A stretch of DNA of 64,000 bases. Origin: Escherichia phage AV125. Shown here piece by piece: positions 13,590 through 32,820 of the stretch. Location of the stretch: the sequence record OR352955.1; one strand, 5' to 3'. A program made the translations under genes and the position numbers. Positions within the stretch are counted from its first letter, which is position 1, and every line of letters starts with the position of its first letter. Under the pieces are notes generated by a model. That model saw only the letters and a program-made list of their open reading frames with translations. It searched no databases and was not told where the DNA came from.

Positions 13590-13596
13590 TAAAATA

Positions 13597-13618: not shown

Positions 13619-13626
13619 CGTTTCCC

Positions 13627-13656
13627 TTGACACGAAGTTTCTATATGTGTTACAAT
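13627..13656 (+). promoter_or_regulatory. sigma70-like promoter (TTGACA-18-TACAAT) upstream of baseplate cluster
   Basis: -35 TTGACA 13627-13632, 18-nt spacer, -10 TACAAT 13651-13656, immediately after the terminator. Confidence 0.5.
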
Positions 13657-13715
13657 AATCAATATGGGAAGATCTTGCATCTTCCTTTTGGCATTATCAT
13701 TACTACGAGGTTATC

Positions 13716-16587: not shown

Positions 16588-16588
16588 C

Positions 16589-17215
16589 ATGGGAATCCCT
16601 TTTGACTTAAAACTTGGGCCAAACAACGACCTCATTATGGATGATGGGGATTTGGTCCTCACTACAACCAGAACAGAAATTGCAGCACAAACTCTTGGGA
16701 TAACTCTGAACACGTATCGTGGGGAGTGGTTTTTAAATACTAACTTCGGTGTTCCTTACTTACAAGAGATTATTGGTGTTGCTAGAAAGAAAGATATTGT
16801 AGACAGAATATTTTTAGCAGAGATTGCCAAAAACGTTTACATAGATACAATAAACAGTTATAAATCTGCTTATGACATGGATCAACGTTATTACTCAATG
16901 ACAGTTATGGTCACAGTTGGAGCAGATACAGTAACATCTATATTCAATACTCAACCTTCTGAAGAGTTTATTTACCCTGAAGCTGGTGAAGACAATGCAG
17001 CGATCACTTGTGAAGCTTACAGTATTGTTGAGAATTCGAATAGACTTTATCGCTTTATCAACTTTGTTGGTTTGCCACGTGATACCTACTCTACTTGGTG
17101 GAATGAATGGTCTACAGAGTCAGCAGTGGAAAGAATCATGGTTAACGAAAAAGGTGATGCATTAGCTACAAACAATAATTTCGGTATAACAGCTATGACA
17201 GGAGTAGAAGAGTAA
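16589..17215 (+). CDS. Baseplate wedge protein (gp25/W-like, putative)
   Basis: 208-aa ORF directly after the spike gene, as for W/gp25-like proteins; no diagnostic motif. Confidence 0.3.
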   Translation: MGIPFDLKLGPNNDLIMDDGDLVLTTTRTEIAAQTLGITLNTYRGEWFLNTNFGVPYLQEIIGVARKKDIVDRIFLAEIAKNVYIDTINSYKSAYDMDQRYYSMTVMVTVGADTVTSIFNTQPSEEFIYPEAGEDNAAITCEAYSIVENSNRLYRFINFVGLPRDTYSTWWNEWSTESAVERIMVNEKGDALATNNNFGITAMTGVEE

Positions 17216-17688
17216 TGGCAGATTTAACTACGATCAAAGTTTCTGATCTTACACAAACAACCTCTGTGTCTGATACAGATTTCTTTGTAACAGATCAGGC
17301 TGGAATAACAAAGAAAACTTCTTTGAAAGTGCTGTTGAGTGGTGCAGGGGTAACTAGAAACCGTCTGAATGCACGGGGAACAGTAACTAGCACATTGGCA
17401 TTAGATATTAGTTCAGCAGAATATTTTTCAGCAACTTTATCTTCTGAAACGTGCACAATTAGTTTTACTAATATTCCAGTAGCAACAAATGCAGTTTTAA
17501 ACTTTACTTTAGCTTTGCGTCAAGGAAGTGGTGCAAATAAAGTCGTATGGCCTTCTTCTGTAAAATGGAGTTTTGGTCGTTCCCCAGTTTTGAGTTATCG
17601 TCAAGGTGCAACAGACACTTTTGAGTTTATCAGTTATGATAATGGTGCAACTTGGACAGGTAGCTTAGTTTTAGCAGGAGTTATTTAA
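17215..17688 (+). CDS. Small tail protein carrying a fiber N-terminal anchor-like motif
   Basis: N-terminus VSDTDFFVTDQAGITKKTSLKVL resembles the N-termini of the 22735 tailspike and the 45-aa ORF at 25189. Confidence 0.3.
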   Translation: MADLTTIKVSDLTQTTSVSDTDFFVTDQAGITKKTSLKVLLSGAGVTRNRLNARGTVTSTLALDISSAEYFSATLSSETCTISFTNIPVATNAVLNFTLALRQGSGANKVVWPSSVKWSFGRSPVLSYRQGATDTFEFISYDNGATWTGSLVLAGVI

Positions 17689-20564
17689 TGTCAAGAGTTA
17701 AGCACAATATTGACAACACGTTTCAGTTGATTGAAGGGTTGGTTCAGTTTTTGGAAAGAAATACTGGGCTTACCATAGATCCTACGGTTCAGCATTACAT
17801 TATCAACCCACAAAACGTATTGGCGAACAACAGACACTTTATTAACTGGACAGCGCAGGAAGGGCAACCAAACGGTGACGCTACTACCGAAGGTCAATCT
17901 GTGCTTATCACTGGTTTTGCTTATGCATATTTGGCTACAGGGGATAAAAAATATCTTGAATCTGCCGAGAAGTATTGGCAAGCCTATATAGATCACTTCT
18001 TCGGGGGCCAACCTATTCCTGATCCTCCGGCTAAGTATCGTCCCAACTGGATCATCAATGGTAAAGAACCACGTTTAGCACATTACCCTCTCACAGATGA
18101 TGGGTATCCTACGCACGGTGGGTTCAAAGGTAGCATGATGACTTGGATTAACGGAAGGACTGTTATTCCTAAAGGTGCACCGCATTGGGGAGAATACTTA
18201 GATAAAGCTTGGTTTGCTTTCAATGGTAATCTTGGTTGGAACTCCGTTAACGCAACAGTTTATGCAACTAACCCAGATGGTTCAACTAACTGGAAAGAAT
18301 ATGGAGATCAGTGGGACGTTGAATGGATTATAGATCGTCTAGGACGTAAAGTTGATTGGGATGGTAACATTTTATCTGCAGGGCACAGCTTCGCAGAATA
18401 TGGAACAGTGCAACTTAAAAATGCTTCTGTGAACGGTGATTATAAATTCAACTACGCTACATGCAACCCTGTAGAACACGGTGGATATCTGCTTAAGCGT
18501 AATGAGATGTGGCATAACCGTCCTGTAAACGTTCCGGTAGAGTTAGGCTATCAAGATAATGCTTCCGATGCTGAAACGTGGTGGTGTGATGCAAACTACT
18601 TGATGTATCAGATCACAGGAGAGAGAAAATACTGGCTTTGCTGGCAATCTTCTTTATTGTTGTGTCAAGACTACTCAAACATCGATATGTTTGATAAATT
18701 CTTCCGTAGATCTACGACAGCAATAATTCCTTTTACAGATGGTATCTCGTATGATTACTCATACCCATCTACAGCAATACCTAAATATTCTCGTGACGAA
18801 TTAGGATATACAGTAATTCGCCAAGATGTTTCAGCACAAACAACTCTAGAACAACAGGCAGTTTGGTTCAGAGTGGATCAGAATTCAAAACTGCGTATTG
18901 AGTTTCAAGGTGTAGATGATGCAGGGGAAGGTGTTCTTTTCCGTCCAGAGTTAGAATTAAGCAAGACTAAGAGTGAAACAGACACAGTGACATATCGTTG
19001 TGGCTTACCTCTTGGTGCAGCTAATATGACTAAGATGGATATACCTTTATCTAGTTTTATGCGCACCGAACCTCCTGGAGGTGGTGTATATATTATTGCT
19101 GAACCTAGAATCATTGTTGACTGGGGAAGCAATACTGTGATACAATATAAATATGCAACTGGTATTGCTGGGACAAATAGTGATCAGATAGTTTCTGCTA
19201 ATATGGATTCAGATGGTGGTTTTACTATTGGATTTTGGTTAACACCAACTAAAACAGCCAATTTAAAATCTATTACCTATCGTTCATACGCAGATGATTT
19301 TAACATCACTATTACGGATTCCGCAGGTTGGAGATGGTGGGCCATGTTAGAAAAAACAAATTCTGCATGGGTTACTAAAGCTTTAAGTCCTGCTGATTTC
19401 AAATTAAGCACTTGGCAACCTAATCACAATGACACAGAGACAAAACCTTCGTCAATAAACCTGACTGCTGTTGATCAGATCAACATTGCATTGGATTCTG
19501 AACCTGCAAATGGCTTGACAGGGGCAATCGACTTTTATTGCGTTAACGATATCCCATCTTTGTATTCTTCAGCCGCTGGTGATGATTACACAATGTATTT
19601 CAGGGTTACAGTTTCATCTGAAAATCCTTATACAGCAAAACTTGGAGATTGTACAATACTGGACTACAAACTTGACAGTTTGAATTATACTCCAGGAATC
19701 ATTCCATTTTCCAATATTAGTGATCCTAACACAGCATTATATGACGGTTGGCGTGGTATTCCTTACCCAGGTTATCAATACCCATCCTTATATTGTTTTA
19801 AAGGGAGAGATATTGACTGGGTTCGTATGAACAACAGTATAGACTTTTTATATGATTCACAAATGTGGTTTTATAATAAGTTTGCCCCTGTGATGCCTGG
19901 GCCAATGGCACAAGCTTATGTTTGGGATCGTTGGGATGCTCATAAATACGGAAACAAGAATGAGTTCACAATGTATCATTGGAACGATAAAGCTTGGGAT
20001 GGTTATGAAGCACGAGCATTCTTCTGTGCATGTCATACAGTATACGAACTGAAACAACGAGGAGCAGAAGTTCCTGCAAAACTTTTAACAGTTTGTAAAA
20101 ACTGGATCAACTATCTGAAATGGTTCCAAGATAACAACGAAGGAAGAACACCAACAATATTTTATCCCAATGGAGAAGTGGCTGCGCCTGTAGATGACTT
20201 TACAAGTCACATGTCTGCGCTCTTTATGGCGGGATGTGCTATAATGGGGATGGCTGGATATGATTCAGAAATTCCTAACATTAGAATAGTAGCAGACCGC
20301 TGTTTTGAACTTATTCAGGAAAACTATATTGTTCTTGGTCCTAATCACGTCATGAATGGTTGTTGGAGTGCCGCTCCTAGACCAGACAGTGATAACGGAG
20401 TCTTCTTTGGCTTCCACGCTGGAGAGTTGTTACGTGGTTTTGGGTTGTATGCTTTATACAAAAAACTTAATCCCCAAAATGCATTACCTGTTTTGGATTC
20501 GAGCAATATTCCTGCACTTACTGTTTTGACAATGGCAAACATTAGTGTGGACGTTACCGAGTAA
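17688..20564 (+). CDS. Large tail/baseplate-associated protein (958 aa), possible enzymatic receptor-binding protein
   Basis: Large ORF in the tail cluster; Trp/Tyr-rich; segment ITGFAYAYLATGDKKYLESAEKYWQAY is suggestive of a glycoside-hydrolase-like helical barrel (weak). Confidence 0.3.
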   Translation: MSRVKHNIDNTFQLIEGLVQFLERNTGLTIDPTVQHYIINPQNVLANNRHFINWTAQEGQPNGDATTEGQSVLITGFAYAYLATGDKKYLESAEKYWQAYIDHFFGGQPIPDPPAKYRPNWIINGKEPRLAHYPLTDDGYPTHGGFKGSMMTWINGRTVIPKGAPHWGEYLDKAWFAFNGNLGWNSVNATVYATNPDGSTNWKEYGDQWDVEWIIDRLGRKVDWDGNILSAGHSFAEYGTVQLKNASVNGDYKFNYATCNPVEHGGYLLKRNEMWHNRPVNVPVELGYQDNASDAETWWCDANYLMYQITGERKYWLCWQSSLLLCQDYSNIDMFDKFFRRSTTAIIPFTDGISYDYSYPSTAIPKYSRDELGYTVIRQDVSAQTTLEQQAVWFRVDQNSKLRIEFQGVDDAGEGVLFRPELELSKTKSETDTVTYRCGLPLGAANMTKMDIPLSSFMRTEPPGGGVYIIAEPRIIVDWGSNTVIQYKYATGIAGTNSDQIVSANMDSDGGFTIGFWLTPTKTANLKSITYRSYADDFNITITDSAGWRWWAMLEKTNSAWVTKALSPADFKLSTWQPNHNDTETKPSSINLTAVDQINIALDSEPANGLTGAIDFYCVNDIPSLYSSAAGDDYTMYFRVTVSSENPYTAKLGDCTILDYKLDSLNYTPGIIPFSNISDPNTALYDGWRGIPYPGYQYPSLYCFKGRDIDWVRMNNSIDFLYDSQMWFYNKFAPVMPGPMAQAYVWDRWDAHKYGNKNEFTMYHWNDKAWDGYEARAFFCACHTVYELKQRGAEVPAKLLTVCKNWINYLKWFQDNNEGRTPTIFYPNGEVAAPVDDFTSHMSALFMAGCAIMGMAGYDSEIPNIRIVADRCFELIQENYIVLGPNHVMNGCWSAAPRPDSDNGVFFGFHAGELLRGFGLYALYKKLNPQNALPVLDSSNIPALTVLTMANISVDVTE

Positions 20565-20572
20565 GGGGTAAA

Positions 20573-22726
20573 ATGAAACAAGCTATATTTACTGTCACGC
20601 GAGACAAGAGAGTAAATGCGAGTTCATTTAACTACACGACTGTTGACGGAACAGCAGTCGCTGGTAGAGATTATATAGCAAAATCGGGAACACTTGTGTT
20701 CCCTGATGATGCTGATTCTGCTACCATTGTGGTTGAAGTATTTGAACGACCAAAGAACTCAATAGATCTTAACTTCTCCCTCCAAGTTTCAGGGATTAGT
20801 CAAAATAACATGATGGTTGAAACGACCATCAATTGTATTATAACTACTATCCAAGAAAACACTACTCCAATAACTTGGACTACAAAAGACGTTAAAATGT
20901 TCTCTCCTATGTATTGGACAATAGACTCTCAAGCAACGGAAAGTTGTTCTATTGTATCTCATGGAGACTCTTTTACTGCAAGATTTGTAAACAGAACAGC
21001 AGCAGGTTTGGCAGGGGTTATCTGGAGCACAGTTGACAAATATGATCACAAAGGTGTTGGGTATTTACCCCACACAGATTTAAGTTCAGAGAAACTTTGG
21101 TTTAAAATGGAAATTAGTCAAAACATGCCAGGTTTTAAAGAAGAACCTTTGGTGCCGACTTTGACTGTAACTCTCCTGGATAAAAGTGTTCATTATGTCA
21201 GTTTAGGATTCTACGCTTCAGATATTTCAGAAGATGGTAAAACAGCCACAATCAAGTTAGATTTTGGTAATATCTTTTCTGGCCCTAATAATGATATTCC
21301 TTTGGATATGAGTGCTGTAGATAATATTTTCTTCTCTTTGATTACAGCAAGGTATGAAGAAATAGAAGAGATTGTACCTATTGCCAGTCAAGAGGCTTGG
21401 TTTACTTTCACTCTTCTTGAACCTACTTCTGGTTACAGTATGATGAAAGTCAGCAACCTTGTTCAGCCTGAACATGATATTCGCATGTGCACATCTTATG
21501 ATGATATGTATAACCTGACTCCAGAGAGAGTTATTTATAATACGTATGCACTAGGTTATCGTGGAATGATTAACCATTACAACGGAATGTCTCACTATTA
21601 TGAGTTCTCATGGAACGGAACATCTTGGGCTTTAAATAGATCTGTTTTCCTGAATCCGGCTACAGAAGCTTGGCTTAACAGTTTCCATTCTATAGCTAAT
21701 GAAAATGGCTACACAATAATGAACTCTTTGAGTTTTGAGTTGATGAGCACAGTTTGTCCTGTAGAATGGGTTCAACATGATTGGAACGATGCTCTTGCAG
21801 CAACAGGTTATGAGCCGCCTAGTTATGTGTTATCTCCAACAATTGATGAAGGTATGGAATATTTGCAAAATGTTATTAACAAAATAGCATCTATTTCTCA
21901 AGCTAACAATATTCCAGTCGTCATTCAAATTGGTGAACCTTGGTGGTGGTATAATACAGCAAGTAAAATGCCTTGCATATACGATTACACTACCAAACTG
22001 GCATTCAACACAGAAACTGGCTTATTTGCACAAGATGCAGGAACAATAGATAATTATAAAACAGGAACGCCGTTTGACGAATACTATGCGTTTTTGTCTC
22101 GTAAACTAGGATTAAGAGTTACAAAGTTTGCAACAGATACTAGAGCAACTTACCCAGGAGCTAAAGTAACATTGCTTCCGTTCTTACCATCGATTATCGG
22201 CAACGGTTTGATGGAGAAAGTTAACTTTCCGTCTGATTACTACATTCCTGAAACTTTTGATTTTTACTGTTCAGAGTGTTACGACTGGCTTCTGGAAGGT
22301 AAAATGATGAAAGCATTCGATGCAATTACCATACCACGTGAAAAATTAGGTTTTGAATATTCTGATATTCACTATCTTTCAGGTTTTGTTCCAGATGCTA
22401 CTCTTGCGCCTTTGTATGGCTTCGATCCTGAATCAAACTACCGCACGTATCTTTGGAAAATGATTATAGGTAATATAGTGTTGAACGCCAATAAGTTCAA
22501 TGGGCTTACACAATATATATGGGCCTATCCTCAAATAATGCATGATTCCATCACGGTAGTTAATTCTCAATCCCAAGTTTTCTATATGGGTAACGTGCCT
22601 TTGAACGTTTATTTACAGGATATCACGCTTAAACAGGTAAATGTTGAGATTGCCACCATAAGTGGAATTACATTAGCCACTAAATCTGGAGAAGATTTAG
22701 TAACAACACAAAAATTTTATATATAG
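20573..22726 (+). CDS. Tail-associated protein with N-terminal Calx-beta-like domain
   Basis: N-terminus FTVTRDKRVNASSFNYTTVDGTAVAGRDYIAKSGTLVF matches the Calx-beta pattern (R, DG, TA.AG.DY, G.L.F); 717 aa, in the tail cluster. Confidence 0.35.
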   Translation: MKQAIFTVTRDKRVNASSFNYTTVDGTAVAGRDYIAKSGTLVFPDDADSATIVVEVFERPKNSIDLNFSLQVSGISQNNMMVETTINCIITTIQENTTPITWTTKDVKMFSPMYWTIDSQATESCSIVSHGDSFTARFVNRTAAGLAGVIWSTVDKYDHKGVGYLPHTDLSSEKLWFKMEISQNMPGFKEEPLVPTLTVTLLDKSVHYVSLGFYASDISEDGKTATIKLDFGNIFSGPNNDIPLDMSAVDNIFFSLITARYEEIEEIVPIASQEAWFTFTLLEPTSGYSMMKVSNLVQPEHDIRMCTSYDDMYNLTPERVIYNTYALGYRGMINHYNGMSHYYEFSWNGTSWALNRSVFLNPATEAWLNSFHSIANENGYTIMNSLSFELMSTVCPVEWVQHDWNDALAATGYEPPSYVLSPTIDEGMEYLQNVINKIASISQANNIPVVIQIGEPWWWYNTASKMPCIYDYTTKLAFNTETGLFAQDAGTIDNYKTGTPFDEYYAFLSRKLGLRVTKFATDTRATYPGAKVTLLPFLPSIIGNGLMEKVNFPSDYYIPETFDFYCSECYDWLLEGKMMKAFDAITIPREKLGFEYSDIHYLSGFVPDATLAPLYGFDPESNYRTYLWKMIIGNIVLNANKFNGLTQYIWAYPQIMHDSITVVNSQSQVFYMGNVPLNVYLQDITLKQVNVEIATISGITLATKSGEDLVTTQKFYI

Positions 22727-22734
22727 GAGTAAAA

Positions 22735-24930
22735 ATGTCAACTACAATTACTAATTTACCCGAAACATCAAAAGTTAATGGTTCTGATTACCTGGTTTTA
22801 GACCAAGCTGACAAGACTGTTAAAAGCACAGTTTCCAACTTTCTTACTGACACTGGGGTGGTTTTAGCCACCCAGTTGAAAGATACAGATGGAGCAGATT
22901 TAATACAATCCTCAAATGGTAATACTGTTCAGGAAGAGTTGAATAACAATCTTCTTAATGATCGTGAACTATGGCGTCGTAGTCTTGCTGAGGCAGGGTT
23001 AACTCTTGTCAACGGTAGCTTTGAAGATGGCGCTATATTAAATAATAAGACGGATGCTGTTTGGTATATTGCAGGTGGACAGTGCTATACATGGGGTGGT
23101 GCTTTCCCTAAAGCTGTTCCCGCTGACTCAACCCCTGAAACATCCGGTGGTGTTGGGCCGGGTGCGTGGGTTTTGGTGAACGCCACCACCCAGCTACCTT
23201 ATGTCACCCCTGAAATTTATGGTGCAAAGGGTGATGGCGTAACTGACGACTTGACCGCGATACAAGCGGCATTAGATTCAGGTAAAGATGTAATTTTTTC
23301 TAAAAAATATACAGTATCAGCCCGTTTAACTTTGAAAACTAATAACCAGACTCTACAATTTATTAATGGGTCTTCTTTGATGTGCAATGTACCGACAGTT
23401 ACCTTGCTGTATGGTTCTGGTGTTACAGGTGTCAAAATCTTTAATGCTCGTCTTGCCTCCAGTTCAGGTTCTACCAACACATATAATGGTTCTTGTGTTT
23501 GGTTAGATACATGCTCATATTGTTGCATTGAAGATTGTGTGTTTTCTAACTATAAAGCCTCGGCGGTATTTCTAAATAACTCAAGTTATTGTAATGTTGT
23601 GAGATGCACATTTTTGGGATCTCCGGGGGCTGCTGGTGACGTGACTATGTGGCGTTCCAATGTGGGGCACTTGATTTCTGATAACAATATGGTTTCTGGT
23701 TCAGATACTGCTATTGTTTTGCAAACAATTGATGATGGGGACCATTCTAATGCCAACAGAATAGTTAACAATACTATTGAAAATTGTACGCGGTATGGTA
23801 TAGTCGTTTATAACAATCTGGAAACAAAGACAGGGACACTCACCAATACATTGGTACAAGGGAACACCATTAAGAATATTTATGGTAATGTTCTTAATAC
23901 CACAACCCAAACATATACTTACGGATCAGGGATATACATTTTGTCTGCCGAAGGTATCAAAGTGATTGGGAATACCATAGATCTCACAAATCAAAACACC
24001 GATTCTACGACACTTTCACCAGCGTGTATTGGTGTGAACGCAACATCTGAAGCCATTATTTCCAATAATATAATTTCTCGTGGGGCTTATTATGGGATTA
24101 TGATTTCAGATGCACTACAGCAGGGGGTAGGGACTAACGCCAATTCTGAATCATTTAAACCAAATTCTACTGTCGTTGTTGCTAACAATATTATTAAAGC
24201 ATGTTCCCGTAGCGGGTTGTATATCTTTAATCATCATAATGTTAAATGTGTGGGTAATATCACTATTTCCAACACACAAAATGGGGTTCTCACAGGTGCT
24301 GATAATGCGTTATATCCAACTTTAAACAATATTGAAATTCTTTCGCACACTTCCAGAGAAAATACTATGGCTGGTCTGTCAATAACAAAATGTGATACCC
24401 CTACGATTGATGTATCAGAATGTAAGGATAATTCGGGAGATGGAATCTATTGTTCTTCAATAAATGCTGTTATCAAAGTGGGGAGCGTAATTCGGAACAA
24501 CAGAGGGATCGTGATTGCAGCTTCCGGTTGTTCAATAATGGGCGGTAGAGTCACAGGGAATACTACAGGAATATTATCTACTCTTAGTTATAAGTTGATT
24601 TCTGCTTATGTAGCTGGTAATACTACAGATTATTCTGGGGATTTCGGTCCAATTTTGTCCTACAAAGGTAACTCTACACCATCAGTCAAAGACAGAGATA
24701 CGATCATCCTGAGCGATGCCACTACCATAACCGATTTCACTGATGGTGTGTTGGGCCAGACAATTAAGATTAGGGCCACAGTTAATGGAACGGTTATTTC
24801 TCATAATTCATCCGGTATACGTCTTAAAGGGAATACCTCATTCTCTATGCAAGCTGGAGAAACATTGACGTTAACTAAATTTTACACGAACCAATGGGAT
24901 GAAATATCTAGAAAAACCGTAACCGAATAA
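22735..24930 (+). CDS. Tailspike with right-handed parallel beta-helix (pectate-lyase-like)
   Basis: N-terminal anchor motif SDYLVLDQADKTVKSTV; motif FPKAVPADSTPETSGGVGPGAWV; repeated N/G-x-I-x-N beta-helix rungs (NNTIENCTRYGIVVYNN, GNTIKNIYGN, SNNIISRGAYYGIMISD). Confidence 0.5.
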   Translation: MSTTITNLPETSKVNGSDYLVLDQADKTVKSTVSNFLTDTGVVLATQLKDTDGADLIQSSNGNTVQEELNNNLLNDRELWRRSLAEAGLTLVNGSFEDGAILNNKTDAVWYIAGGQCYTWGGAFPKAVPADSTPETSGGVGPGAWVLVNATTQLPYVTPEIYGAKGDGVTDDLTAIQAALDSGKDVIFSKKYTVSARLTLKTNNQTLQFINGSSLMCNVPTVTLLYGSGVTGVKIFNARLASSSGSTNTYNGSCVWLDTCSYCCIEDCVFSNYKASAVFLNNSSYCNVVRCTFLGSPGAAGDVTMWRSNVGHLISDNNMVSGSDTAIVLQTIDDGDHSNANRIVNNTIENCTRYGIVVYNNLETKTGTLTNTLVQGNTIKNIYGNVLNTTTQTYTYGSGIYILSAEGIKVIGNTIDLTNQNTDSTTLSPACIGVNATSEAIISNNIISRGAYYGIMISDALQQGVGTNANSESFKPNSTVVVANNIIKACSRSGLYIFNHHNVKCVGNITISNTQNGVLTGADNALYPTLNNIEILSHTSRENTMAGLSITKCDTPTIDVSECKDNSGDGIYCSSINAVIKVGSVIRNNRGIVIAASGCSIMGGRVTGNTTGILSTLSYKLISAYVAGNTTDYSGDFGPILSYKGNSTPSVKDRDTIILSDATTITDFTDGVLGQTIKIRATVNGTVISHNSSGIRLKGNTSFSMQAGETLTLTKFYTNQWDEISRKTVTE

Positions 24931-25018
24931 ATATTGATCAATAGGGGTTAAGTGCTCCTCTTCTTTTGATGCTATTTATCAAAACAGAGTATCATCACAC
25001 CGCAATGTTTCAAAAACA

Positions 25019-25047
25019 TTGACAACTTTGTGTGCACAAGTTATAAT
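25019..25047 (+). promoter_or_regulatory. Consensus sigma70 promoter (TTGACA-17-TATAAT) with palindrome across the -10
   Basis: Perfect -35 and -10 hexamers with 17-nt spacing; inverted repeat TGTGTGCA (25029-25036) / TGCACACA (25047-25054) brackets the -10 element. Confidence 0.65.
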
Positions 25048-25188
25048 GCACACACGTTAATAGATGGTTTGTGTGGCTTGCCGCACTTTACGACACAACA
25101 AGAACAAGCGACTGAGTATCATCACCCTGAAGGGGAAATCATCTCCTTCAGGTGGTGTTCAGTGCATAACGTATAAAAGGAAAAGTAA

Positions 25189-25326
25189 ATGTTAAATTAC
25201 ACCACTAGTCGCCCAACAGTAGCTATCTCAGATCTTGATAGCACTGGGGTTGTAACTTTATCAAACGATCTTGTCGTGGATCAACCTGATGCCACGAGAA
25301 AGGCCTCTTTAGCCTCTGTTCTGTAG
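25189..25326 (+). CDS. 45-aa ORF resembling a tail fiber N-terminal anchor module
   Basis: ATG at 25189 after AAAGGAAAAG; translation MLNYTTSRPTVAISDLDSTGVVTLSNDLVVDQPDATRKASLASVL shares the D-x-LVxDQxxxTxK motif with ORFs 17215 and 22735; not in the track because it is under 60 aa. Confidence 0.3.
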   Translation: MLNYTTSRPTVAISDLDSTGVVTLSNDLVVDQPDATRKASLASVL

Positions 25327-25378
25327 ACCTTGGGGAATTAGCTGTATATCGTGATTTAAAAAGTAATGAGAACGCACC

Positions 25379-25621
25379 ATGAGAAAGTTTTTAATCGGAA
25401 TGTTTTGTACTTATCCAAACAACAAAATCAGTTCTACTAAAGTGTGGAACGCACTGGGAATGCTAACCATGACAGGCATGTTTATCTTTTTAGGAATAGA
25501 AAAAGAAATTCCTGAATGGATGGGTTGGGCTTTTGTTTTCATGATAACTCCTTCTCGCCTCATGAAAAATCTTATTGATTTACGCTGGGGCAGATCACAA
25601 TCTACCAAAGAGGATGAATAA
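25379..25621 (+). CDS. Small membrane protein (two predicted TM helices)
   Basis: 80-aa ORF with two hydrophobic segments (LIGMFCTY...; MTGMFIFLGI...WMGWAFVFMI). Confidence 0.3.
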   Translation: MRKFLIGMFCTYPNNKISSTKVWNALGMLTMTGMFIFLGIEKEIPEWMGWAFVFMITPSRLMKNLIDLRWGRSQSTKEDE

Positions 25622-27108
25622 TGGACGAATATGGTTTGACAGATGCGGGATTTGTAATCCCGACTTTTGACGATGTTTTAAACAACTACATGACAGCAGT
25701 AAAAAACACATTTGGTGCAGATGCAGCCACTTCGGAAGATACTGTGATCGGACAACTGTTTAGAATAATTGCATACACAGATTACACATTGTGGGAAGGT
25801 ATGCAAGGGGTTTATAATACTCAAACACTGGATGGTGCAGAAGGTATTTATCTTGATGAAATCTTTTCTAAACGCGGTTTCTATCGAGCAGGTGCAGCAG
25901 CAAGTACAGGTTATGCATATGTTAAGAGTAATAACAAAGCAGCTTGGACTTATGAGCTAGGCACGGATATTTACTTCAACTCTGACAGTGATATGAACTA
26001 CTATGTTAGCACACCAACTATGTTGAATGCTAAGATTGCAGCTTATCAAATCTCTCGTGCTAATGCAACTGCTACAGGTGTTCCAAATATTACTTTTTAT
26101 GCACAAAGTGCGGTGGATGGAGGACTAAACAGTAAAACACTTGCACCTGGTTCTTCTACATTTATAACCGATCTTGAAACTTTTATCAAGGCGAATTTAA
26201 CAGAAGCTGATCGTAGTCTTGTATTTTCTGATTCAGGTAACTTATCAATTGGTTTTACTTCTTTAACCAGTGATACTCCAGTGGGGCTGGTAACTCCTAT
26301 TAAATTTTATGCTAGTGTTCCGGTTGGAACCAAGTGGAGTGAGATTCCGGTAGTTGCAGCAGAGAAAGGATACAATCCTGTTGGTGTGGAGTCTATTACA
26401 GGGATATCTTCTACCTTTACAGGTTATCTTGATAGTGGTAACTTCTATTCATTTTCCCCTGGTCGAGATGTTGAGACAGACGCAGAATTCCGCTCTCGTT
26501 TCAATGACAACGTTGACGAAGCTAACGCAGGGACACGAGCAGCTATTGTGAAAGCTCTGCTACTTACAGATGGTGTTACTAAGGTGAAGATTTATGATAA
26601 CCCTACATTACATGATCAAGAACATGCTCCAGCTATGACTTTCCAGACTATAGTTTATGGTGGCAGTGCAGAAGAAATTGCAAATGTTATCTATAAAACC
26701 AAACCAATCAACACTTTGACACACGGAACAACAAACATAACAGTTACAACAGAAGATGGAGGACAAGAAATTATTCGCTTCTCTCCTGGTGCTTCTGCTA
26801 TGTATTCCGTAAAACTTGTTTATCAAACTGTCAACGGAACAACTTTAAGTGGAACAGAAAAACAAAACATCGTAGAAGCTTTACAAAACCTGCAAGCTTA
26901 CTTTGAGTTAGGTTCTTCAGTAACGAACGATCAAATCAAAGGTGTTATTTATGCAGCACTTGCTTTTGGACGCTTGACTTCTCTTCGTGTTTATGTTAAA
27001 CTTAATACTGAGGATGACAGTAAATATACAGAGAATAATATAGTTCCTGCTTATAATGTTGTCCCTTCTTTTGACCTTGATAACATTTCTTACGAGTATG
27101 GAGTGTAA
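25621..27108 (+). CDS. Baseplate J-like protein
   Basis: N-terminus (GLTDAGFVIPTFDDVLNNYMTAVKNTFGADAATSEDTVIGQLFRIIAY) resembles baseplate J-family N-termini; 495 aa; followed by an I-like gene and a tail fiber. Confidence 0.45.
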   Translation: MDEYGLTDAGFVIPTFDDVLNNYMTAVKNTFGADAATSEDTVIGQLFRIIAYTDYTLWEGMQGVYNTQTLDGAEGIYLDEIFSKRGFYRAGAAASTGYAYVKSNNKAAWTYELGTDIYFNSDSDMNYYVSTPTMLNAKIAAYQISRANATATGVPNITFYAQSAVDGGLNSKTLAPGSSTFITDLETFIKANLTEADRSLVFSDSGNLSIGFTSLTSDTPVGLVTPIKFYASVPVGTKWSEIPVVAAEKGYNPVGVESITGISSTFTGYLDSGNFYSFSPGRDVETDAEFRSRFNDNVDEANAGTRAAIVKALLLTDGVTKVKIYDNPTLHDQEHAPAMTFQTIVYGGSAEEIANVIYKTKPINTLTHGTTNITVTTEDGGQEIIRFSPGASAMYSVKLVYQTVNGTTLSGTEKQNIVEALQNLQAYFELGSSVTNDQIKGVIYAALAFGRLTSLRVYVKLNTEDDSKYTENNIVPAYNVVPSFDLDNISYEYGV

Positions 27109-27110
27109 AA

Positions 27111-27740
27111 ATGGCAGTGAGTGTTGACCATGTAACAACTTGGGCCAGTATCAATGAAGATGTTAAAAACCTTCTGATTGAAGATTTTAAATCTTCTCCT
27201 AACATTGTCAAGCTCCTCTACATCGTATCCAGTGAAAAGCAAAAGATAGATCAGGCAATGATCTATCTTGCTAAACACCGCTTGATCTCTACAGCCACAG
27301 GCAAATACCTAGATATTCTAGGGGAAGAAATGGGGATCGAACGTAATGGCTCTGATGATGAAGAGTATAGAACAATATTAAAAATCAGGGCTTACCGCGT
27401 AGCCTCATCGGGGACTCGTGGTGACATAATTGATATCTTCGCCCGTTTCACAGGAACAGAGCGTGAAACGCTTAATACTTACGTAGGTTTGAATAAAACC
27501 TTTGATGTGTTTTTCTACAACCTGTGTCTTCAATCTGATCAAGCTTTAGAGCAGTTGCTAAGTGTTTTCCCTATTATTAGTAGCTACCGTCTTGGAGCAA
27601 AAGCAGGATCAGCTTTTGGTTTTAGTTCTTATTATGCTACCAAACCGCCTCATGGTATTGGTGGTTTAGGTTCCCTGTACATGGAATCTACTGGGGATGA
27701 AACAGGACGCATGTGTACGCTTCTCAAGCAAATAGATTAA
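27111..27740 (+). CDS. Baseplate/tail protein I-like
   Basis: 209-aa ORF between the J-like and tail fiber genes, the conserved J-I-H order. Confidence 0.35.
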   Translation: MAVSVDHVTTWASINEDVKNLLIEDFKSSPNIVKLLYIVSSEKQKIDQAMIYLAKHRLISTATGKYLDILGEEMGIERNGSDDEEYRTILKIRAYRVASSGTRGDIIDIFARFTGTERETLNTYVGLNKTFDVFFYNLCLQSDQALEQLLSVFPIISSYRLGAKAGSAFGFSSYYATKPPHGIGGLGSLYMESTGDETGRMCTLLKQID

Positions 27741-27749
27741 GGAGTTTAA

Positions 27750-28811
27750 ATGGCGAAGCCAATATATTATCCTGACTGGGCTACACAAACTGTAACGCTC
27801 CCAGGAACTTTAAACACAAACAAAATTAGACCTAAAGAAACCATCCGCACAATTGGTATGGATTATGGTCAAATCATGACTTGCGAAGAAATGAACTGGA
27901 TTCTTAATAATATCGGTTTATGGATTCGCTATTTGGTGGATGACTTTCTTCCAACTTTACCTAATACCTACTTGCCTTTAGTGGGAACTAAGATTACAAT
28001 GGCAGGTGATGCTACTGGTGAGGCTACTTGGAACGGTAACAAAGAAGTTACTTTATCTATCCAGGTTCAAGATAACAGTCATAATCACTTGTCGGCAAAC
28101 ATTACAGATGCCACTAGTTCAACAGTAACACCAAACGTGTTGGTAAAACGTGATGCGGGTGGTGCTATTTATGGTGGCGATGTTTATGTTAACGGTACTT
28201 CCACAACAGATCCTGCAACACTGTTCTTCAAAAACTTTGCAGGACAAACAAATGGTGAGATTTCTGCCGAGTATCAAAGCGGAGGTCAGCTTTATATTTA
28301 TCGTAGAAATCCTAGCACAGGTAGTGTATCGGCAGGTGTTCGTTTATATGATGCAGGTTATGTTCTAATAGATAATCCAAGATCAAACAGTGGACAAGAT
28401 ACTTCTAACGGAAATGCTTTAGTTCGTTTAGATTATCTGAACTCTCGTTTGACTTCCCTTCAGAACACATTGCAGACGAATATTAACACTGTTCAAAACA
28501 ACTTGAATAATGTTAACAACAACCTCTCTTCTCGTATAAACAATGTAGAAAGTAATCATCAAAGTCAGATTACAAATAACTACAACTATGCTAACGGAAC
28601 CTTTGTAAGAGATATTCGTTATACTAGCCAAGGTGTGTATTATCCACCAGGGAACGAGGTTTCTTGGACTTATATCTGTTCTTCTGGTTATGTTCTTTCT
28701 GGTATTATCGTACAGGAAACAGGACGTAGCTCTGCGGATAACATCGGTGGGGTTTACTTCAAACGCCTCCAGCGCAACGTTAACGGAAACTGGTACGATA
28801 TTGGAGGCTAA
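27750..28811 (+). CDS. Tail fiber protein
   Basis: 353-aa Gly/Asn/Thr/Ser-rich ORF with an N/Q/L-rich helical stretch (LQNTLQTNINTVQNNLNNVNNNLSSRINNVESN) typical of fiber shafts; followed by a chaperone-sized gene. Confidence 0.5.
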   Translation: MAKPIYYPDWATQTVTLPGTLNTNKIRPKETIRTIGMDYGQIMTCEEMNWILNNIGLWIRYLVDDFLPTLPNTYLPLVGTKITMAGDATGEATWNGNKEVTLSIQVQDNSHNHLSANITDATSSTVTPNVLVKRDAGGAIYGGDVYVNGTSTTDPATLFFKNFAGQTNGEISAEYQSGGQLYIYRRNPSTGSVSAGVRLYDAGYVLIDNPRSNSGQDTSNGNALVRLDYLNSRLTSLQNTLQTNINTVQNNLNNVNNNLSSRINNVESNHQSQITNNYNYANGTFVRDIRYTSQGVYYPPGNEVSWTYICSSGYVLSGIIVQETGRSSADNIGGVYFKRLQRNVNGNWYDIGG

Positions 28812-29357
28812 ATGATATTTACAAACTTTAAAAAATATATTCCTGAAGATCCTGAACTAAAAGAATTGGTAGAAGCAGAGAACATTCTTTTTCTTCGTTG
28901 CGATCAAGGTTACGATTGGTATTATTTACGTAGCACAGAATTCAATAACGATAAAATGAAAGTCGTTTTTGATGATCAAAATCGTATTGTGTTTTGGAAT
29001 ACTGATCCTACCCTACTTTGCCCTGAAGATCTTTCTATAGCACAAGTAGACTTTAATATAGATACTTTTGAGGATATTAGAAACAAGGTTCTGGATTTAG
29101 AAACCTTAACTCTTAAAGATAAAGAGTATTCCCGTGAAGAGTTGATGACACAAGCTAGTGCAAAAATTCGCTCTTTACAAGAAACAGCAGTAGCACTTAT
29201 AACACCTTTACAGTATGCTAAAGATTTAGAAATGGCTACTGAAGACGAATTAGCTTATCTTAAAAATCTTCAAGTTTATGTAGTTAAACTAAATCGTGTT
29301 CCGCTTCAAAAAGACTATCCTTACGCTATAGATTGGCCTACATTACCGACAGAATAA
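28812..29357 (+). CDS. Tail fiber assembly protein (putative)
   Basis: 181-aa ORF immediately downstream of and coupled to the tail fiber gene (ATG overlaps the upstream stop). Confidence 0.4.
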   Translation: MIFTNFKKYIPEDPELKELVEAENILFLRCDQGYDWYYLRSTEFNNDKMKVVFDDQNRIVFWNTDPTLLCPEDLSIAQVDFNIDTFEDIRNKVLDLETLTLKDKEYSREELMTQASAKIRSLQETAVALITPLQYAKDLEMATEDELAYLKNLQVYVVKLNRVPLQKDYPYAIDWPTLPTE

Positions 29358-29366
29358 GGGATCACT

Positions 29367-29702
29367 ATGGAATTTCAAGAAGCATGGGGACTTGCAAAGG
29401 ATGCAATAATCCCTTTAATAGGAGTCATCTGGTTCTTTTTCAAACAAAAAATGGATAAATTCGGCTCTGATCTTGAGGAAATGGAGGAGAAAAGTCGAGA
29501 GCTAGAGAAGAAGTTGGTCTTTGTTGAATCAACTTATGCAACTAAAGCCGAACTTACCCAGATGCTAAATCAAATTAACTCTACATTAATGGCAAATAAT
29601 AACACCCTTGAGCAAAAAATTGAAAAGATTATGGACCTCAAGAATGCGACTATCCAAATGATGCTAGATGACATAGTTAAACGTACACAGAATAAGGGGT
29701 AA
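29367..29702 (+). CDS. Small protein with N-terminal TM helix and coiled coil
   Basis: Hydrophobic segment AIIPLIGVIWFFF followed by a charged helical region. Confidence 0.3.
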   Translation: MEFQEAWGLAKDAIIPLIGVIWFFFKQKMDKFGSDLEEMEEKSRELEKKLVFVESTYATKAELTQMLNQINSTLMANNNTLEQKIEKIMDLKNATIQMMLDDIVKRTQNKG

Positions 29703-29705
29703 TTA

Positions 29706-32700
29706 ATGGCAACATTCCCAACATATCCAGCAACGTCTCTCGAACAGGGCGTAGACCTGGTTATTTTCTCATCTAACCAACTCCATGATGTTATTAATGG
29801 AAGTGCTACAGAGAGTATTGAAACAGAATCAGGGTTGATACCAACCCTGAGAAAAGCCCTTGTTGACAACTTTTTCTTTAAAAGCCCATTGGATTGGGCG
29901 CAAGGCACAAACGAAACAGTTTTTAACCAACTTCGTTATTTCCAGAATGGAGTGTTGAGTGGTTATTACTATGCGCCTAATGCTACACTGGTAAACCCAA
30001 TTCCTATGCAAGGGACTCCAGTAGGAGATAACAACTGGGTATTGTGGGGACTGAAGACAGAACAACTAGCAACAGAAGTCACCCCTTGGGTATATTCTGG
30101 TGCAACTGGTTATGAAACAGTAATCAGTCCTCCCTACATCTTTGATAGTGCTATTGTTACAATCAATGGTGTTATTCAGGTTCTGGGAGAAGCTTTCCGC
30201 ATAGAAGATAGTAAAATCATTTTATCTGAACCTTTGGGACATGATCCTGCAACAGGACTGCCAAACAAGCTTTTTGCCTATATTGGTAAAATCGTAGCTT
30301 CCGCAGATACAGATCCTAACTTAGAAAACCGTCTTGTCAGTTTAGAAACAAAAACTGAAGAACTGACAGAAAGCATGGATAAAGTACCTTTACAAACTAT
30401 TGCTCGTAAATACGGTTTGTTGGATGATGAAGTAGCTTACGCAACAGCGGGTCAATCATTAACAGGGATTAAAGCTCTGTATGATCCAGTAGCACAATCT
30501 TCCTACACATTGCCTCCTAACATCACAGGGACTTTAACATCTTTGTCTGTTTCTGGAGTAATGACTTATTCTGGCGGATCTGTAGATCTTTCTGCATTAG
30601 CTGTTGAACGTGGACAGTTTGTTCATTTGCCTACAAGCTTTGGTAATAATGTAACTCTGACAGCTAAAAATCAGACGATTGGACGTGGTGCTGGTCGTTA
30701 TCGTTGGGCTGGAAGTTTACCAAAAAGTATTTTGGCCTCTGACACGTTAGAGACAAGTGGTGGATTAGGTCCAAACGCATGGGTTCTAACTAATACGGAA
30801 GGACTGTTAACCCCTCGTGGTGGAACATACAACGATTTATTCGATGTTGTCTACTTGTCAGAATTTGCTAACAATACAACTACCTATACCACACCAGAAG
30901 CAGCTTTCCAGGCGGCACTGTTAGCAGCAAAAGCTTCGAAAAGTAAGATTCTCGATGCTTACGGTTGCGATATGACTTTCACGACAAGCTCTTTTGATAT
31001 TCAAGGTATCACTTTGCGTGGTGGTGTGTTCCGTGGTCAACGCGACTATCGTGTGCAGAATGCTACAGTAGAAGGCACAACTTTCCGTAACTCTCGTGTT
31101 ATGTATTGGGGTGGTGCTGTGCGCATGTTCGATTGTTTGTGGGACGGTGCTCCTCGCGCAGGTCAAGTTGGTAGCTTGGTATTCCAAGGCAACCCAATAT
31201 CAGGTACTTTTGAAATTGATAATTGTACTTTTAAAAACGGGTTATATGGCATCCTTCAACAAGGGACAGGAGAACCAGTAACACGCGGTGTCTTCCGTAA
31301 CCTTACCTTCATGGACATGCAAGGTGATGCGATAGAACTGAACGTCATCAATAAACATTATGATGATGGTTGTGTGATTGAGAATATTTACCTGTCTAAT
31401 ATCGATGGGACTAACGCTCCTATTCCTCTGTCCAACTGGGGTATCGGTATCGGTGTAGCTGGTAAAGGACCATATGGTTACGGAATCCCTGATGATCAAT
31501 ATTGCAAGAATATTACAATTCGTAACGTTTTTGCAAAACGTTGCCGTCAGATTGTCCACGTAGAAGTTGGTCGTAATATTTCTATCGAAAACATTCATGG
31601 CGATCCAGATCAAACCGTATCTGTTGGGACAGGTTTGGCAACTGGCGCAGTTGTAATGTATGGAAGTAAAGATTTTACGATTGACGGTGTTTATGGAGAG
31701 CCTAAAACAGACGGTAGCACACTTGCAAGTAATATCCGTATGATTTATTTGGAGTGGGGAACTAACGCAGTTCTGGACGAAGAGGGTAATCCGGTAGTTC
31801 CGGCACAGGGTAGACCTTCAAACCCATGTTTTAACTATTCTGTTCGTAACATTCACACCAAAACTGGGCGTGTTTTTGCGGGAGTTTCCGCTGGGCCAGG
31901 TTATGAAAACAGAGTTAGCTTTGAAAATATTCGTTGCGCTGCATTGCAGTTGTTCGGTATAGCTTCTTGGCTTTCAATGTCTAACATCACCTGTAATATC
32001 TTCGATTGTGTTGGTCAACCTGAATCTGGTCCAGGAACATTTTATGATGGATTCTTCCGTAGAGAAAAATCTGTTCTTGAAATGGTTAACGTAAACTGTT
32101 ACCCAGATGGCAAGACGATGGTTACTGGTCGTCCACAGTGGAGCCGTTGCCGTTACTCGGATATTCATCGTGTCAACTGTAATGTTGAAGCTAATATGTA
32201 TACCAATATCGCAGGTGGTATTGGAGCTATTGTAGGGACAACGGGCAAAGTTTATTACTTAGAGCCTAATCCTAGTCGAAACATTGATGGAATGCATTTC
32301 CCAACAGGGAAAGAGTTTGACAAAGGTGATATGATAGTCAAAGCGGATAATACGTTCTTCCTTGTAACAACAAGTGGGGCATATATTCCAGATATCCCAG
32401 CTTTCGGTATTCGAGCTACACAGGCAGGAGATACCTTCCTGACACAGAACTTGACTCCTAACGGGACAGCAACAAATGCTTCTTGGTTGTATCATTACCC
32501 TCTGTCAGCAGGGACACGTATCCGTATTCCTGGTGCTGGTGTAGGTGGAGCAGATTTGGACACAGTTATTACTCGTGCACCTTATCAAGATAATGATACG
32601 TGGACTAACCCAGTTAAAATAGACATTGCAGATCCAATTGTAACGCCTACAAGTGCTGGAGTTAGAATTAAAACCATACCTAATGATTCCAGTAATGTTT

Positions 32701-32759
32701 CTGTAGGTAATACTGCGGTTATTCGCCCAACGCCAGTAGTAGATGTGCCAACAACCTAA
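29706..32759 (+). CDS. Tailspike/tail fiber (1017 aa) with beta-helix-like region
   Basis: Internal module RYRWAGSLPKSILASDTLETSGGLGPNAWVLTN shared with two other fiber genes; beta-helix-like repeats (ITIRNVFAKRC, ISIENIHGDP, SVRNIHTKTG); followed by a terminator. Confidence 0.5.
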   Translation: MATFPTYPATSLEQGVDLVIFSSNQLHDVINGSATESIETESGLIPTLRKALVDNFFFKSPLDWAQGTNETVFNQLRYFQNGVLSGYYYAPNATLVNPIPMQGTPVGDNNWVLWGLKTEQLATEVTPWVYSGATGYETVISPPYIFDSAIVTINGVIQVLGEAFRIEDSKIILSEPLGHDPATGLPNKLFAYIGKIVASADTDPNLENRLVSLETKTEELTESMDKVPLQTIARKYGLLDDEVAYATAGQSLTGIKALYDPVAQSSYTLPPNITGTLTSLSVSGVMTYSGGSVDLSALAVERGQFVHLPTSFGNNVTLTAKNQTIGRGAGRYRWAGSLPKSILASDTLETSGGLGPNAWVLTNTEGLLTPRGGTYNDLFDVVYLSEFANNTTTYTTPEAAFQAALLAAKASKSKILDAYGCDMTFTTSSFDIQGITLRGGVFRGQRDYRVQNATVEGTTFRNSRVMYWGGAVRMFDCLWDGAPRAGQVGSLVFQGNPISGTFEIDNCTFKNGLYGILQQGTGEPVTRGVFRNLTFMDMQGDAIELNVINKHYDDGCVIENIYLSNIDGTNAPIPLSNWGIGIGVAGKGPYGYGIPDDQYCKNITIRNVFAKRCRQIVHVEVGRNISIENIHGDPDQTVSVGTGLATGAVVMYGSKDFTIDGVYGEPKTDGSTLASNIRMIYLEWGTNAVLDEEGNPVVPAQGRPSNPCFNYSVRNIHTKTGRVFAGVSAGPGYENRVSFENIRCAALQLFGIASWLSMSNITCNIFDCVGQPESGPGTFYDGFFRREKSVLEMVNVNCYPDGKTMVTGRPQWSRCRYSDIHRVNCNVEANMYTNIAGGIGAIVGTTGKVYYLEPNPSRNIDGMHFPTGKEFDKGDMIVKADNTFFLVTTSGAYIPDIPAFGIRATQAGDTFLTQNLTPNGTATNASWLYHYPLSAGTRIRIPGAGVGGADLDTVITRAPYQDNDTWTNPVKIDIADPIVTPTSAGVRIKTIPNDSSNVSVGNTAVIRPTPVVDVPTT

Positions 32760-32765
32760 TGGAAT

Positions 32766-32790
32766 AGAGGGGGATTCCCCCTCTTCTTCC
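32766..32790 (+). terminator. Terminator hairpin after tailspike gene
   Basis: Stem AGAGGGGG / CCCCCTCT with a 3-nt loop, followed by TCTTCC. Confidence 0.45.
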
Positions 32791-32820
32791 AATAGAATGG
32801 TCTAATGATAGGAGAGATAA

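Follow-up and report, generated by a model that had tools for sequence, protein, structure and literature searches.

Gene content and organization of the tailspike locus

The sequence analyzed here is a 64,000-nt stretch of the genome of Escherichia phage AV125 (OR352955.1), called the window hereafter, and the features of interest are a perfect consensus sigma-70 promoter at 25019-25047 and a 45-aa open reading frame (ORF) downstream of it, in the part of the tail gene cluster that encodes fibres and spikes. The backbone is that of a Phapecoctavirus (Stephanstirmvirinae), a myovirus with phAPEC8, phi92 and rV5 as relatives. Positions 25379-29400 share 99% identity with the Phapecoctavirus genomes EF1-1, 536P1, DE16 and UP17, and identity of the backbone to Justusliebigvirus AV123 is only ~80%. 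The gene order is that of phi92. A sheath initiator gene and the gene of a 157-aa protein are followed by three large fibre/spike genes and a small slot, and these in turn by an 80-aa gene and the baseplate wedge genes. A preliminary description of the window had placed the promoter in the only sizeable intergenic gap of the tail cluster, and this gap is indeed the largest within the fibre/spike part. The evidence presented below indicates that promoter and ORF very probably form the right end of a segment of ~2.15 kb acquired horizontally in the Phapecoctavirus tailspike locus, in other words the scar of a tailspike swap. The features of the locus are:

22735..24930, + strand: third tailspike gene (731 aa), chimeric, with the resident anchor to ~23170 and the imported beta-helix from ~23171
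23171..25317, + strand: segment of ~2.15 kb, very probably acquired horizontally; it comprises the receptor-binding part of the tailspike gene, continues through terminator, promoter and leader, and ends after 43-44 codons of the tailspike gene that came next in the donor
24943..24968, + strand: terminator-like hairpin (6 pairs) and T-run (tail CTTCTTTTGA), directly 3' of the tailspike stop codon
25003..25021, + strand: A/T-rich 8-bp inverted repeat overlapping the -35 box (CAATGTTT / AAACATTG)
25019..25047, + strand: sigma-70 consensus promoter (-35 TTGACA at 25019-25024, 17-nt spacer, -10 TATAAT at 25042-25047)
25029..25054, + strand: inverted repeat bracketing the -10 box (TGTGTGCA at 25029-25036 / TGCACACA at 25047-25054)
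25071..25086, + strand: putative leader hairpin HP1 (GUGUGG-CUUG-CCGCAC), with one compensatory G-C to A-U change relative to the metagenomic contig L005
25111..25163, + strand: leader hairpin HP2, predicted stem of ~22 bp interrupted by a bulge and an internal loop (core CCTGAAGG / CCTTCAGG)
25177..25181, + strand: Shine-Dalgarno sequence AAGGA, 7 nt before the ATG
25189..25326, + strand: 45-aa ORF, the truncated extreme N-terminus of a donor-type tailspike (translation MLNYTTSRPTVAISDLDSTGVVTLSNDLVVDQPDATRKASLASVL)
25318..25324, + strand: right crossover at the 7-nt microhomology GTTCTGT; the BLAST homology of the relatives begins exactly at 25318
25318..25382, + strand: remnant of a resident stub gene (last 20 codons, ending in SVDLGELAVYRDLKSNENAP, and the stop codon), in a frame different from that of the ORF and with no start codon
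25379..25621, + strand: first resident downstream gene (80 aa), annotated as "membrane protein" in EF1-1 and followed by the baseplate wedge genes

A tailspike segment bounded by two different junctions

The product of the third tailspike gene harbors a Tail_spike_N domain (aa 92-148) and a Beta_helix domain according to Pfam, and these two parts have different relatives. Identity to the PaulScherrer homolog, which is 83-100% over the anchor, falls to 20-40% at position 23171, and identity to the contig L005 (ENA ERZ8974715) rises to 97-100% from ~23170. The left junction lies inside the STPETSGGVGPGAWV motif, at the end of the anchor domain, which is common to both anchor types; its position in a conserved protein motif suggests that the left crossover was homologous. 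From there the whole segment 23171-25317 is homologous to positions 728-3197 of L005, whereas no DNA match was found in 46 related phages beyond 25318-25378, nor any match in 5,426 E. coli genomes. Scans for the promoter pattern, exact or degenerate and extended in IMG/VR to the leader hairpin, gave zero matches in IMG/VR, JGI metagenomes and GTDB genomes. An origin from a prophage or a bacterium was accordingly rejected, given the lack of a match in the E. coli genomes and of a promoter-pattern match in the GTDB genomes.

The right junction is of another kind. Among the 48 phage genomes matching 24931-25378, 46 match only 25318-25378, which corresponds to the 3' end of the resident stub gene. 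Around this point the window reads ...GCC TCT GTT CTG TAG ACC and the resident gene ...GCG GGT TCT GTA GAC C, and the donor-type genes continue as ...S-(V/I/M)-L-S-S-L-G. The stop codon of the 45-aa ORF (TAG, 25324-25326) is formed across this junction, and the out-of-frame joining accounts for the immediate stop and for the absence of the Tail_spike_N and receptor-binding domains from the 45-aa product.

The segment lies within a longer block (22977-25386) that is 100% identical to Justusliebigvirus AV123, while the flanks share only ~55-85% identity, suggesting that the finished mosaic was itself exchanged between genera. Such full identity points to a very recent crossing of the block between two genera of Stephanstirmvirinae. 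The slot underwent a second, independent replacement in L012, again from the donor lineage; this contig is 97% identical to the window over 18788-22898. L012 harbors a different tailspike domain and a donor-type terminator, but between this terminator and the ribosome-binding site it has neither promoter nor leader. There (L012 5802-6333), the donor-type anchor and the resident ...VDLGELAV... tail are fused in frame at an AGS motif that both share, and the product has 110 aa.

These data are best explained by the following scenario. An exchange would have swapped the receptor-binding part of the resident third tailspike with its left crossover in STPETSGGVGPGAWV, would have overrun the donor terminator, promoter and leader into the first 43-44 codons of the next donor tailspike, and would have ended within the small resident stub gene, at the 7-nt microhomology. 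Later, the whole block 22977-25386 would have been moved or exchanged between genera, with the anchor region and the conserved 61-nt remnant of the stub as homology arms.

Exchange of receptor-binding domains of tailspikes and tail fibres behind a conserved N-terminal anchor is described in Kuttervirus, Gamaleyavirus, Justusliebigvirus and Klebsiella phages (PMC10408124; PMC8262889). The locus shares with these cases an anchor of resident type (aa 1 to ~145) and a foreign beta-helix with relatives in unrelated phages, and is an ordinary instance of tailspike module exchange and phage mosaicism, although an unusually cleanly resolved one. It differs from them in that the 3' end of the gene was overshot, so that the donor's terminator, promoter and leader came along together with the beginning of the gene behind them, and the resident stub was destroyed, and in that the right end is illegitimate (microhomology) rather than homologous.

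The imported beta-helix (23171-24930) also has more distant relatives, with ~50% identity to the tailspike of Klebsiella phage K16 and 41% to a Raoultella protein with the annotation "right-handed parallel beta-helix repeat protein"; its close relatives are found in L005 (98%, protein) and L003 (90%). From these similarities, the imported domain may act as a depolymerase on capsule or O-antigen, which would give an E. coli phage a Klebsiella-like specificity.

The donor lineage and its tailspike cassette

The donor type is an uncultured myovirus lineage represented by the metagenomic contigs L005 and L013 to L016. These phages share with the window the layout of the sheath-initiator and baseplate genes and are only distant relatives of the window phage. 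The copies of the cassette were found only by protein look-ups in ENA and Logan assemblies, for which a profile of donor-type anchors was used because a protein search with the 45-aa ORF alone retrieved only itself.

In L005, a 690-aa tailspike with 98% protein identity to the imported domain and an 850-aa tailspike downstream of it are separated by a spacer of 261 nt, which is homologous to 24931-25188. The spacer carries the same terminator-like hairpin, perfect promoter, inverted repeat and long leader hairpin as the window. The cassette also precedes tailspikes of 909 aa (L013), 685 aa (L014) and 894 aa (L015), and two cassettes are present within 5.3 kb in L016, one before a 731-aa tailspike and the other before a further tailspike gene. 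The comparison with relatives suggested in the preliminary description, aimed at a full-length fibre gene at this position, thus has a clear outcome, with tailspikes of 685-909 aa following the promoter in L005, L013, L014, L015 and L016. In this lineage a terminator hairpin precedes the promoter in every case, and a tailspike gene follows it whose ribosome-binding site, AAAGGAAAA, is invariant in all cassette copies. The self-contained expression unit of each donor tailspike would begin with an intrinsic terminator and an A/T-rich stretch, continue with a perfect sigma-70 promoter (TTGACAAC-N16-TATAAT), whose boxes are covered by small stem-loops, and with a structured leader, and end in a strong ribosome-binding site and the conserved anchor. 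The terminator hairpin of the window is weakened by two G.T pairs, whereas its homolog in L003 is a perfect GC-rich hairpin (AGGGGC-TAAGT-GCCCCT) followed by TCTTTTG; the element is present in L005 too.

The closest resemblance of this cassette is to the PeSL (promoter-early stem-loop) cassettes of the T4-type phages RB49, phi1, PST and nt-1, which combine a sigma-70 consensus promoter, an AT-rich upstream region and a stem-loop between or over the boxes, are repeated near plastic genes and mediate modular shuffling (PMC2839356, PMC4122927). Like them, the cassette of the window is a terminator/promoter unit, with putative stem-loops over the -35 and -10 boxes, that ends in a Shine-Dalgarno sequence and a start codon; the consensus is perfect, and the 16 nt upstream (CAATGTTTCAAAAACA) hold 12 A/T. 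As to the stem-loops, 8-bp stems can be drawn over both boxes in the window, and the -10 stem ranges from -16 to -4.8 kcal/mol over six copies, at mostly modest z-scores. Unlike in PeSLs, the terminator is a distinct element upstream of the promoter and the leader is long and structured (60-135 nt); the cassette is found in Stephanstirmvirinae and an uncultured relative of theirs, and is followed by large structural tailspike genes rather than small ORFans. Repetition in many copies was not observed, the window holding a single one and the short donor contig L016 two in 5.3 kb. Membership of the cassette in the PeSLs is therefore not established.

The PeSL likeness nonetheless raises the question of whether the cassette is a repeated mobile module that serves as homology for tailspike shuffling, which would be compatible with an imported segment and would add a mechanism to it. 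In favor of this, the architecture agrees with the published description and stands beside the most plastic genes (PMC2839356; PMC4122927), the cassette is repeated before successive tailspikes of the donor lineage, including the two of L016, and breakpoints lie beside it: homology to L003 ends at 24979, just past the terminator, and identity to L005 drops at ~24954. However, both junctions of the scar, the coding motif at 23171 and the microhomology at 25318, are outside the cassette, the window has only one copy, the donor is known from short contigs, and none of these phages is of T4 type. We regard this mechanism as possible, although doubtful.

Morons, as defined by Hendrix and colleagues, are autonomous units of promoter, gene and terminator that have been inserted between two genes in related phages. 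The locus recalls them in having an extra segment with its own strong promoter between genes that, in relatives, adjoin each other or have something else between them. It differs in being the tail end of a gene replacement and not a discrete insertion, in holding a truncated fragment of a structural gene where a moron has an intact accessory gene, and in having no predicted terminator after the ORF.

Other elements were noticed in the donor contigs. Two HNH endonuclease genes (PF13392) are present among the baseplate genes of L014 (3498-4163 and 4857-5366); their vicinity to the tailspike locus makes it possible that they are homing elements. Truncated N-terminal parts of tailspike genes are common in this lineage as well. 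In L015 (153-359) and L014 (6001-6207), a 68-aa anchor stub runs directly into the terminator. Split genes were found in L013 (358-654, 98 aa) and L016 (288-569, 93 aa), and L017 has an in-frame TAA within the anchor (799-987, 62 aa).

A conserved donor promoter, probably a passenger in this phage

The promoter matches the sigma-70 consensus at 12 of 12 positions, as had been described, and its predicted transcription start is near 25054. It is the sole 12/12 match within 16000-34000 and the sole site without mismatch and with a 17-nt spacer across the window; sites with at most one mismatch number 5, compared to 0.93 expected. Another perfect TTGACA/TATAAT pair, with a 16-nt spacer, lies on the - strand at 52709-52737, within a block of non-structural genes.

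Conservation was assessed over six distinct copies, namely those of the window, L005, L013, L015/L014 and the two of L016 (L016a and L016b). TTGACA-17-TATAAT is identical in all six, spacing included, even though the copies are diverged: none of the 12 hexamer positions varies, compared to 32 of 47 neighboring positions (8 of 17 in the spacer and 24 of 30 upstream; Fisher p = 1.6e-5). From this invariance we conclude that the predicted promoter is functional and under selection in the donor lineage.

In this phage it is most likely a passenger. The other 46 Stephanstirmvirinae genomes sharing the locus lack it, no such promoter exists on the + strand at the locus in the five genomes examined (PaulScherrer, ZCKP1, alia, ECGD1 and UP17), and the 249-nt gap of EF1-1, the closest backbone relative with 99% identity downstream and an intact 102-aa stub, has no promoter-like site on the + strand. 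This distribution indicates that it is not a native promoter of the distal fibre genes. To judge from the genomes of EF1-1, PaulScherrer, ZCKP1, alia, ECGD1 and UP17, which do without it, it would not be needed. No terminator-like site is predicted on the + strand over 24959-27598, and hence none between the promoter and the baseplate genes, so that transcription from the promoter would cover the stub and extend into the 80-aa gene and the wedge genes of the baseplate. Such read-through would be tolerated rather than required.

Host-type promoters within structural clusters are normal for this phage group. An analysis of rV5 predicted 33 sigma-70-like promoters genome-wide, including in the late region (PMC3606486). 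Native terminator-plus-promoter pairs are also found in the window, three on the strand of the structural genes (13590-13660, 1489-1517 and 3181-3209, +) and one on the opposite strand (45185-45213, -). All four have near-consensus sigma-70 promoters, those on the structural strand being at 13627, 1489 and 3181; at 13627, for example, the hairpin CCTCGCTTCGGCGAGG is followed by a T-run and then by TTGACA-18-TACAAT. The promoter at 25019 resembles these consensus-like host promoters inside structural clusters, but the native ones have one or two mismatches and no further sequence in common with it, whereas it is imported and absent in the sister genomes.

The preliminary description had interpreted the inverted repeat around the -10 box as an operator and the promoter as a regulated internal one for the distal fibre genes. 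The repeat itself is as described, with 8-bp arms (TGTGTGCA / TGCACACA) that are 100% complementary and 10 nt between them. In the window it could form a stem-loop of -10 kcal/mol (z = -1.8), and the values for the other copies are -16, -9.5, -8.8, -8.4 and -4.8 kcal/mol; some stem-loop is thus allowed in five of the six (-8.4 to -16 kcal/mol). The z-scores are nevertheless modest (-1.3 to -2.0 in four of six copies), as dinucleotide-preserving shuffles fold nearly equally well, which we attribute to the arms being alternating pyrimidine-purine tracts that are self-complementary almost automatically. Perfect arms are present in three of the six copies (8 bp in the window, 9 bp in L005 and 9 bp in L015), and in L015 one change per arm (C to T and G to A) leaves the repeat paired. 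The repeat is down to 5 bp in L013, L016a and L016b, and in the copies with a short leader the position of its downstream arm differs by 3 nt. A repressor operator has half-sites that are conserved in sequence at fixed spacing. Neither the sequence nor the spacing of the half-sites is conserved among the copies, and the operator interpretation does not fit; an operator function of the repeat is not established by these comparisons. By eye, and with no formal scan, neither a LexA box (CTG-N10-CAG) nor a CRP box (TGTGA-N6-TCACA) was recognized in the palindrome. The A/T-rich repeat over the -35 box is retained in L005 and L013 and also in L015, where both arms have changed and still pair; L016a and L016b have lost it.

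Of the proposal of a regulated internal promoter, therefore, the part that stands is a real and selected promoter, while its owner is the donor lineage. In its stronger form, a phage or host repressor bound to the -10 palindrome would time the expression of the distal fibre and baseplate genes. The perfect consensus in six copies, the inverted repeat shared by the window, L005 and L015 with paired changes on both arms, and the lack of a predicted terminator before the downstream baseplate genes are what one would expect under this hypothesis. Set against these are the absence of the promoter from all other sequenced backbone relatives, which express the same downstream genes, the reduction of the repeat to 5 bp in half of the copies and the 3-nt shift of its downstream arm, the composition of arms whose shuffled versions fold nearly as well, and the fact that no cognate regulator is known, no candidate having been sought. 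Regulation of this kind appears improbable.

A structured leader with a conserved hairpin

The leader of ~135 nt had been correctly described, extending from the predicted start at ~25054 to the ATG at 25189. As a whole it folds with -42.3 kcal/mol (z = -3.4). Long leaders of ~125-140 nt are shared by the window, L005 and L016b, whereas those of L013, L014, L015 and L016a are short (~60 nt), lack HP2 and have no convincing structure (z = -1.3). The 8-bp inverted repeat previously noticed at 25126-25152 is real, and is the core (CCTGAAGG / CCTTCAGG) of the longer hairpin HP2. Compared to L005, HP2 shows seven one-sided changes in the 5' arm, none of which breaks the pairing owing to G.U pairs, and an invariant 3' arm; this pattern fits an RNA of the + strand and not DNA or the opposite strand. 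The stem has 22 bp in the window and L005, and a 16-bp core is found in all three long-leader copies, that of L016b being without the outer 6 bp.

RNase III processing hairpins in phage leaders, such as the T7 R sites and the lambda N leader, have ~20 bp or more and often an internal loop. With its predicted stem of ~22 bp, bulge and internal loop, and its changes compatible with G.U pairing on the RNA strand, HP2 resembles them; unlike them, it is missing in the short-leader variants and has only 16 bp in L016b. From its predicted fold, HP2 is a candidate RNase III site or a candidate mRNA-stabilizing hairpin. HP1 was rejected as a conserved structure, as the compensatory pair relative to L005 is single and the hairpin is broken in L016b. 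No known RNA family was recognized either, the best Rfam hit being sub-threshold (21.9 bits compared to a gathering score of 55), and no tRNA or tmRNA was found.

A 15-nt direct repeat (ACAGAGTATCATCAC / ACTGAGTATCATCAC) is also present at 24984-24998 and 25111-25125, with a spacing of 127 nt. Its second copy is the outer 5' arm of HP2, and the repeat is absent in L005. It may be due to chance or represent a conversion tract.

The 45-aa ORF and the resident stub gene

The 45-aa ORF is present as described, with an AAGGA ribosome-binding site 7 nt 5' of its ATG. Its reported resemblance to the anchors of two other proteins is sustained for the 157-aa protein encoded at 17215 (BLASTP E = 3e-5, 39% identity over 36 aa) but not at the level of BLASTP for the 22735 tailspike (E = 28), with which it shares only the motif L-V-x-DQ-x-D-x-T-x-K. 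Much closer are the N-terminus of the 690-aa tailspike of L005 (76% identity, E = 1e-17) and the first 45 residues of the 850-aa one (60% identity, E = 7e-16). By tblastn, the ORF matches genes of ~180 rV5/PVP-SE1-like phages whose annotations read tail fibre, tail spike or colanidase. The ORF itself has no Pfam match and is without Tail_spike_N and the C-terminal receptor-binding/beta-helix domain. As Tail_spike_N (PF18668) spans aa 54-107 in the 850-aa homolog, the ORF ends 9 residues short of the point where the domain begins in full-length proteins.

The suggestion that the ORF is a remnant left by recombination is borne out: its stop codon was made by the out-of-frame junction with the resident stub, which makes it a gene fragment, and its donor-type homologs are full-length. 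It occurs only as near-identical copies, in AV123, cardinal and the window phage. A programmed frameshift joining it to the ...VDLGELAV tail was rejected, since a direct reading of 25315-25326 revealed no slippery heptamer. The 45-aa product is most likely functionless.

The resident stub gene is intact in PaulScherrer, ZCKP1 and EF1-1, where it encodes 101-102 aa and is annotated as tailspike or tail protein, and is shortened to 49 aa by an in-frame internal deletion in alia, ECGD1 and UP17. The slot, that of gp143 in phi92, holds the stub in 46 genomes, and the same slot is found in L002, L008-L011 and L018. The N-terminus of the stub (MNKMFTQPTG...NKQAIARKFG) resembles that of the 670-aa tailspike of L003 (MKTQFNQSQGS...NKEAIARIFG). 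From its sequence the stub looks like an anchor-only relic, yet one that has kept an open frame.

A functional role of the 45-aa product, for example as an anchor peptide that caps the tailspike docking site of the baseplate or competes for it, is very unlikely. Its start codon is intact, its ribosome-binding site is strong and conserved, its anchor motif is common to the phage's own 157-aa protein, and anchor-only stubs are common, the 49/101-aa stub being open in many genomes. However, its stop codon is an accident of the junction, it ends before Tail_spike_N, the same junction was resolved otherwise in L012, with an in-frame 110-aa product, and it is known from near-identical copies only. 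As to the idea that promoter and palindromes are chance matches in AT-rich intergenic DNA, weak promoter-like matches do occur at the frequency of shuffled sequence (50 observed compared to 50.2 expected), but the 12/12 match is unique among the sites with a 17-nt spacer in the window and is exact in six diverged homologs whose spacer and flanks vary, which effectively refutes it.

Some observations weigh against the interpretation of the locus as the scar of a tailspike swap. The identity of 97-100% to L005 extends only to ~24953 and is 55-88% (~77%) over the cassette and stub, so that either the true donor was unlike L005 in this part or several events are superimposed. A two-step history, with an L012-like in-frame import followed by a deletion, is also conceivable. 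N-terminal stubs are frequent (45, 49, 62, 68, 93, 98, 101, 102 and 110 aa) and the 49- and 101-aa forms are open in many genomes, which leaves room for an anchor-only protein function. Lastly, the promoter is intact and of perfect consensus, and most likely still fires with the host RNA polymerase, an activity deduced from its sequence alone.

Implications for tailspike evolution

The locus represents a case, resolved to the base pair, of the transfer of a host-range gene, with a conserved motif on one side, a 7-nt microhomology on the other and regulatory DNA dragged along. For annotation, the 45-aa "hypothetical protein" of AV123, and presumably that of AV125, is better read as a fragment of a tailspike gene. 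With respect to therapeutic phages related to phi92 and phAPEC8, the slot tolerates replacement, loss of the stub and the presence of a strong promoter from elsewhere; natural homology arms are available in the anchor region and the conserved 61-nt remnant. The donor cassette combines a terminator, a strong promoter, a leader and a ribosome-binding site, and could serve as a natural part for the expression of heterologous tailspikes.

If the analogy with PeSLs were true, a recombination mechanism known to date from T4-type phages alone would have a wider reach. More speculatively, and rather unlikely at present, an uncultured lineage of enterobacterial myoviruses outside the T4-like phages may package each tailspike as a portable PeSL-like cassette, with a structured leader that may be processed by RNase III. 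Such cassettes would drive the shuffling of receptor-binding genes across subfamilies and, once imported, would provide the recipient's baseplate operon with a strong constitutive promoter. Were tailspikes carried in this way, the imported promoter would alter the timing or dosage of the virion genes of the recipient phage.

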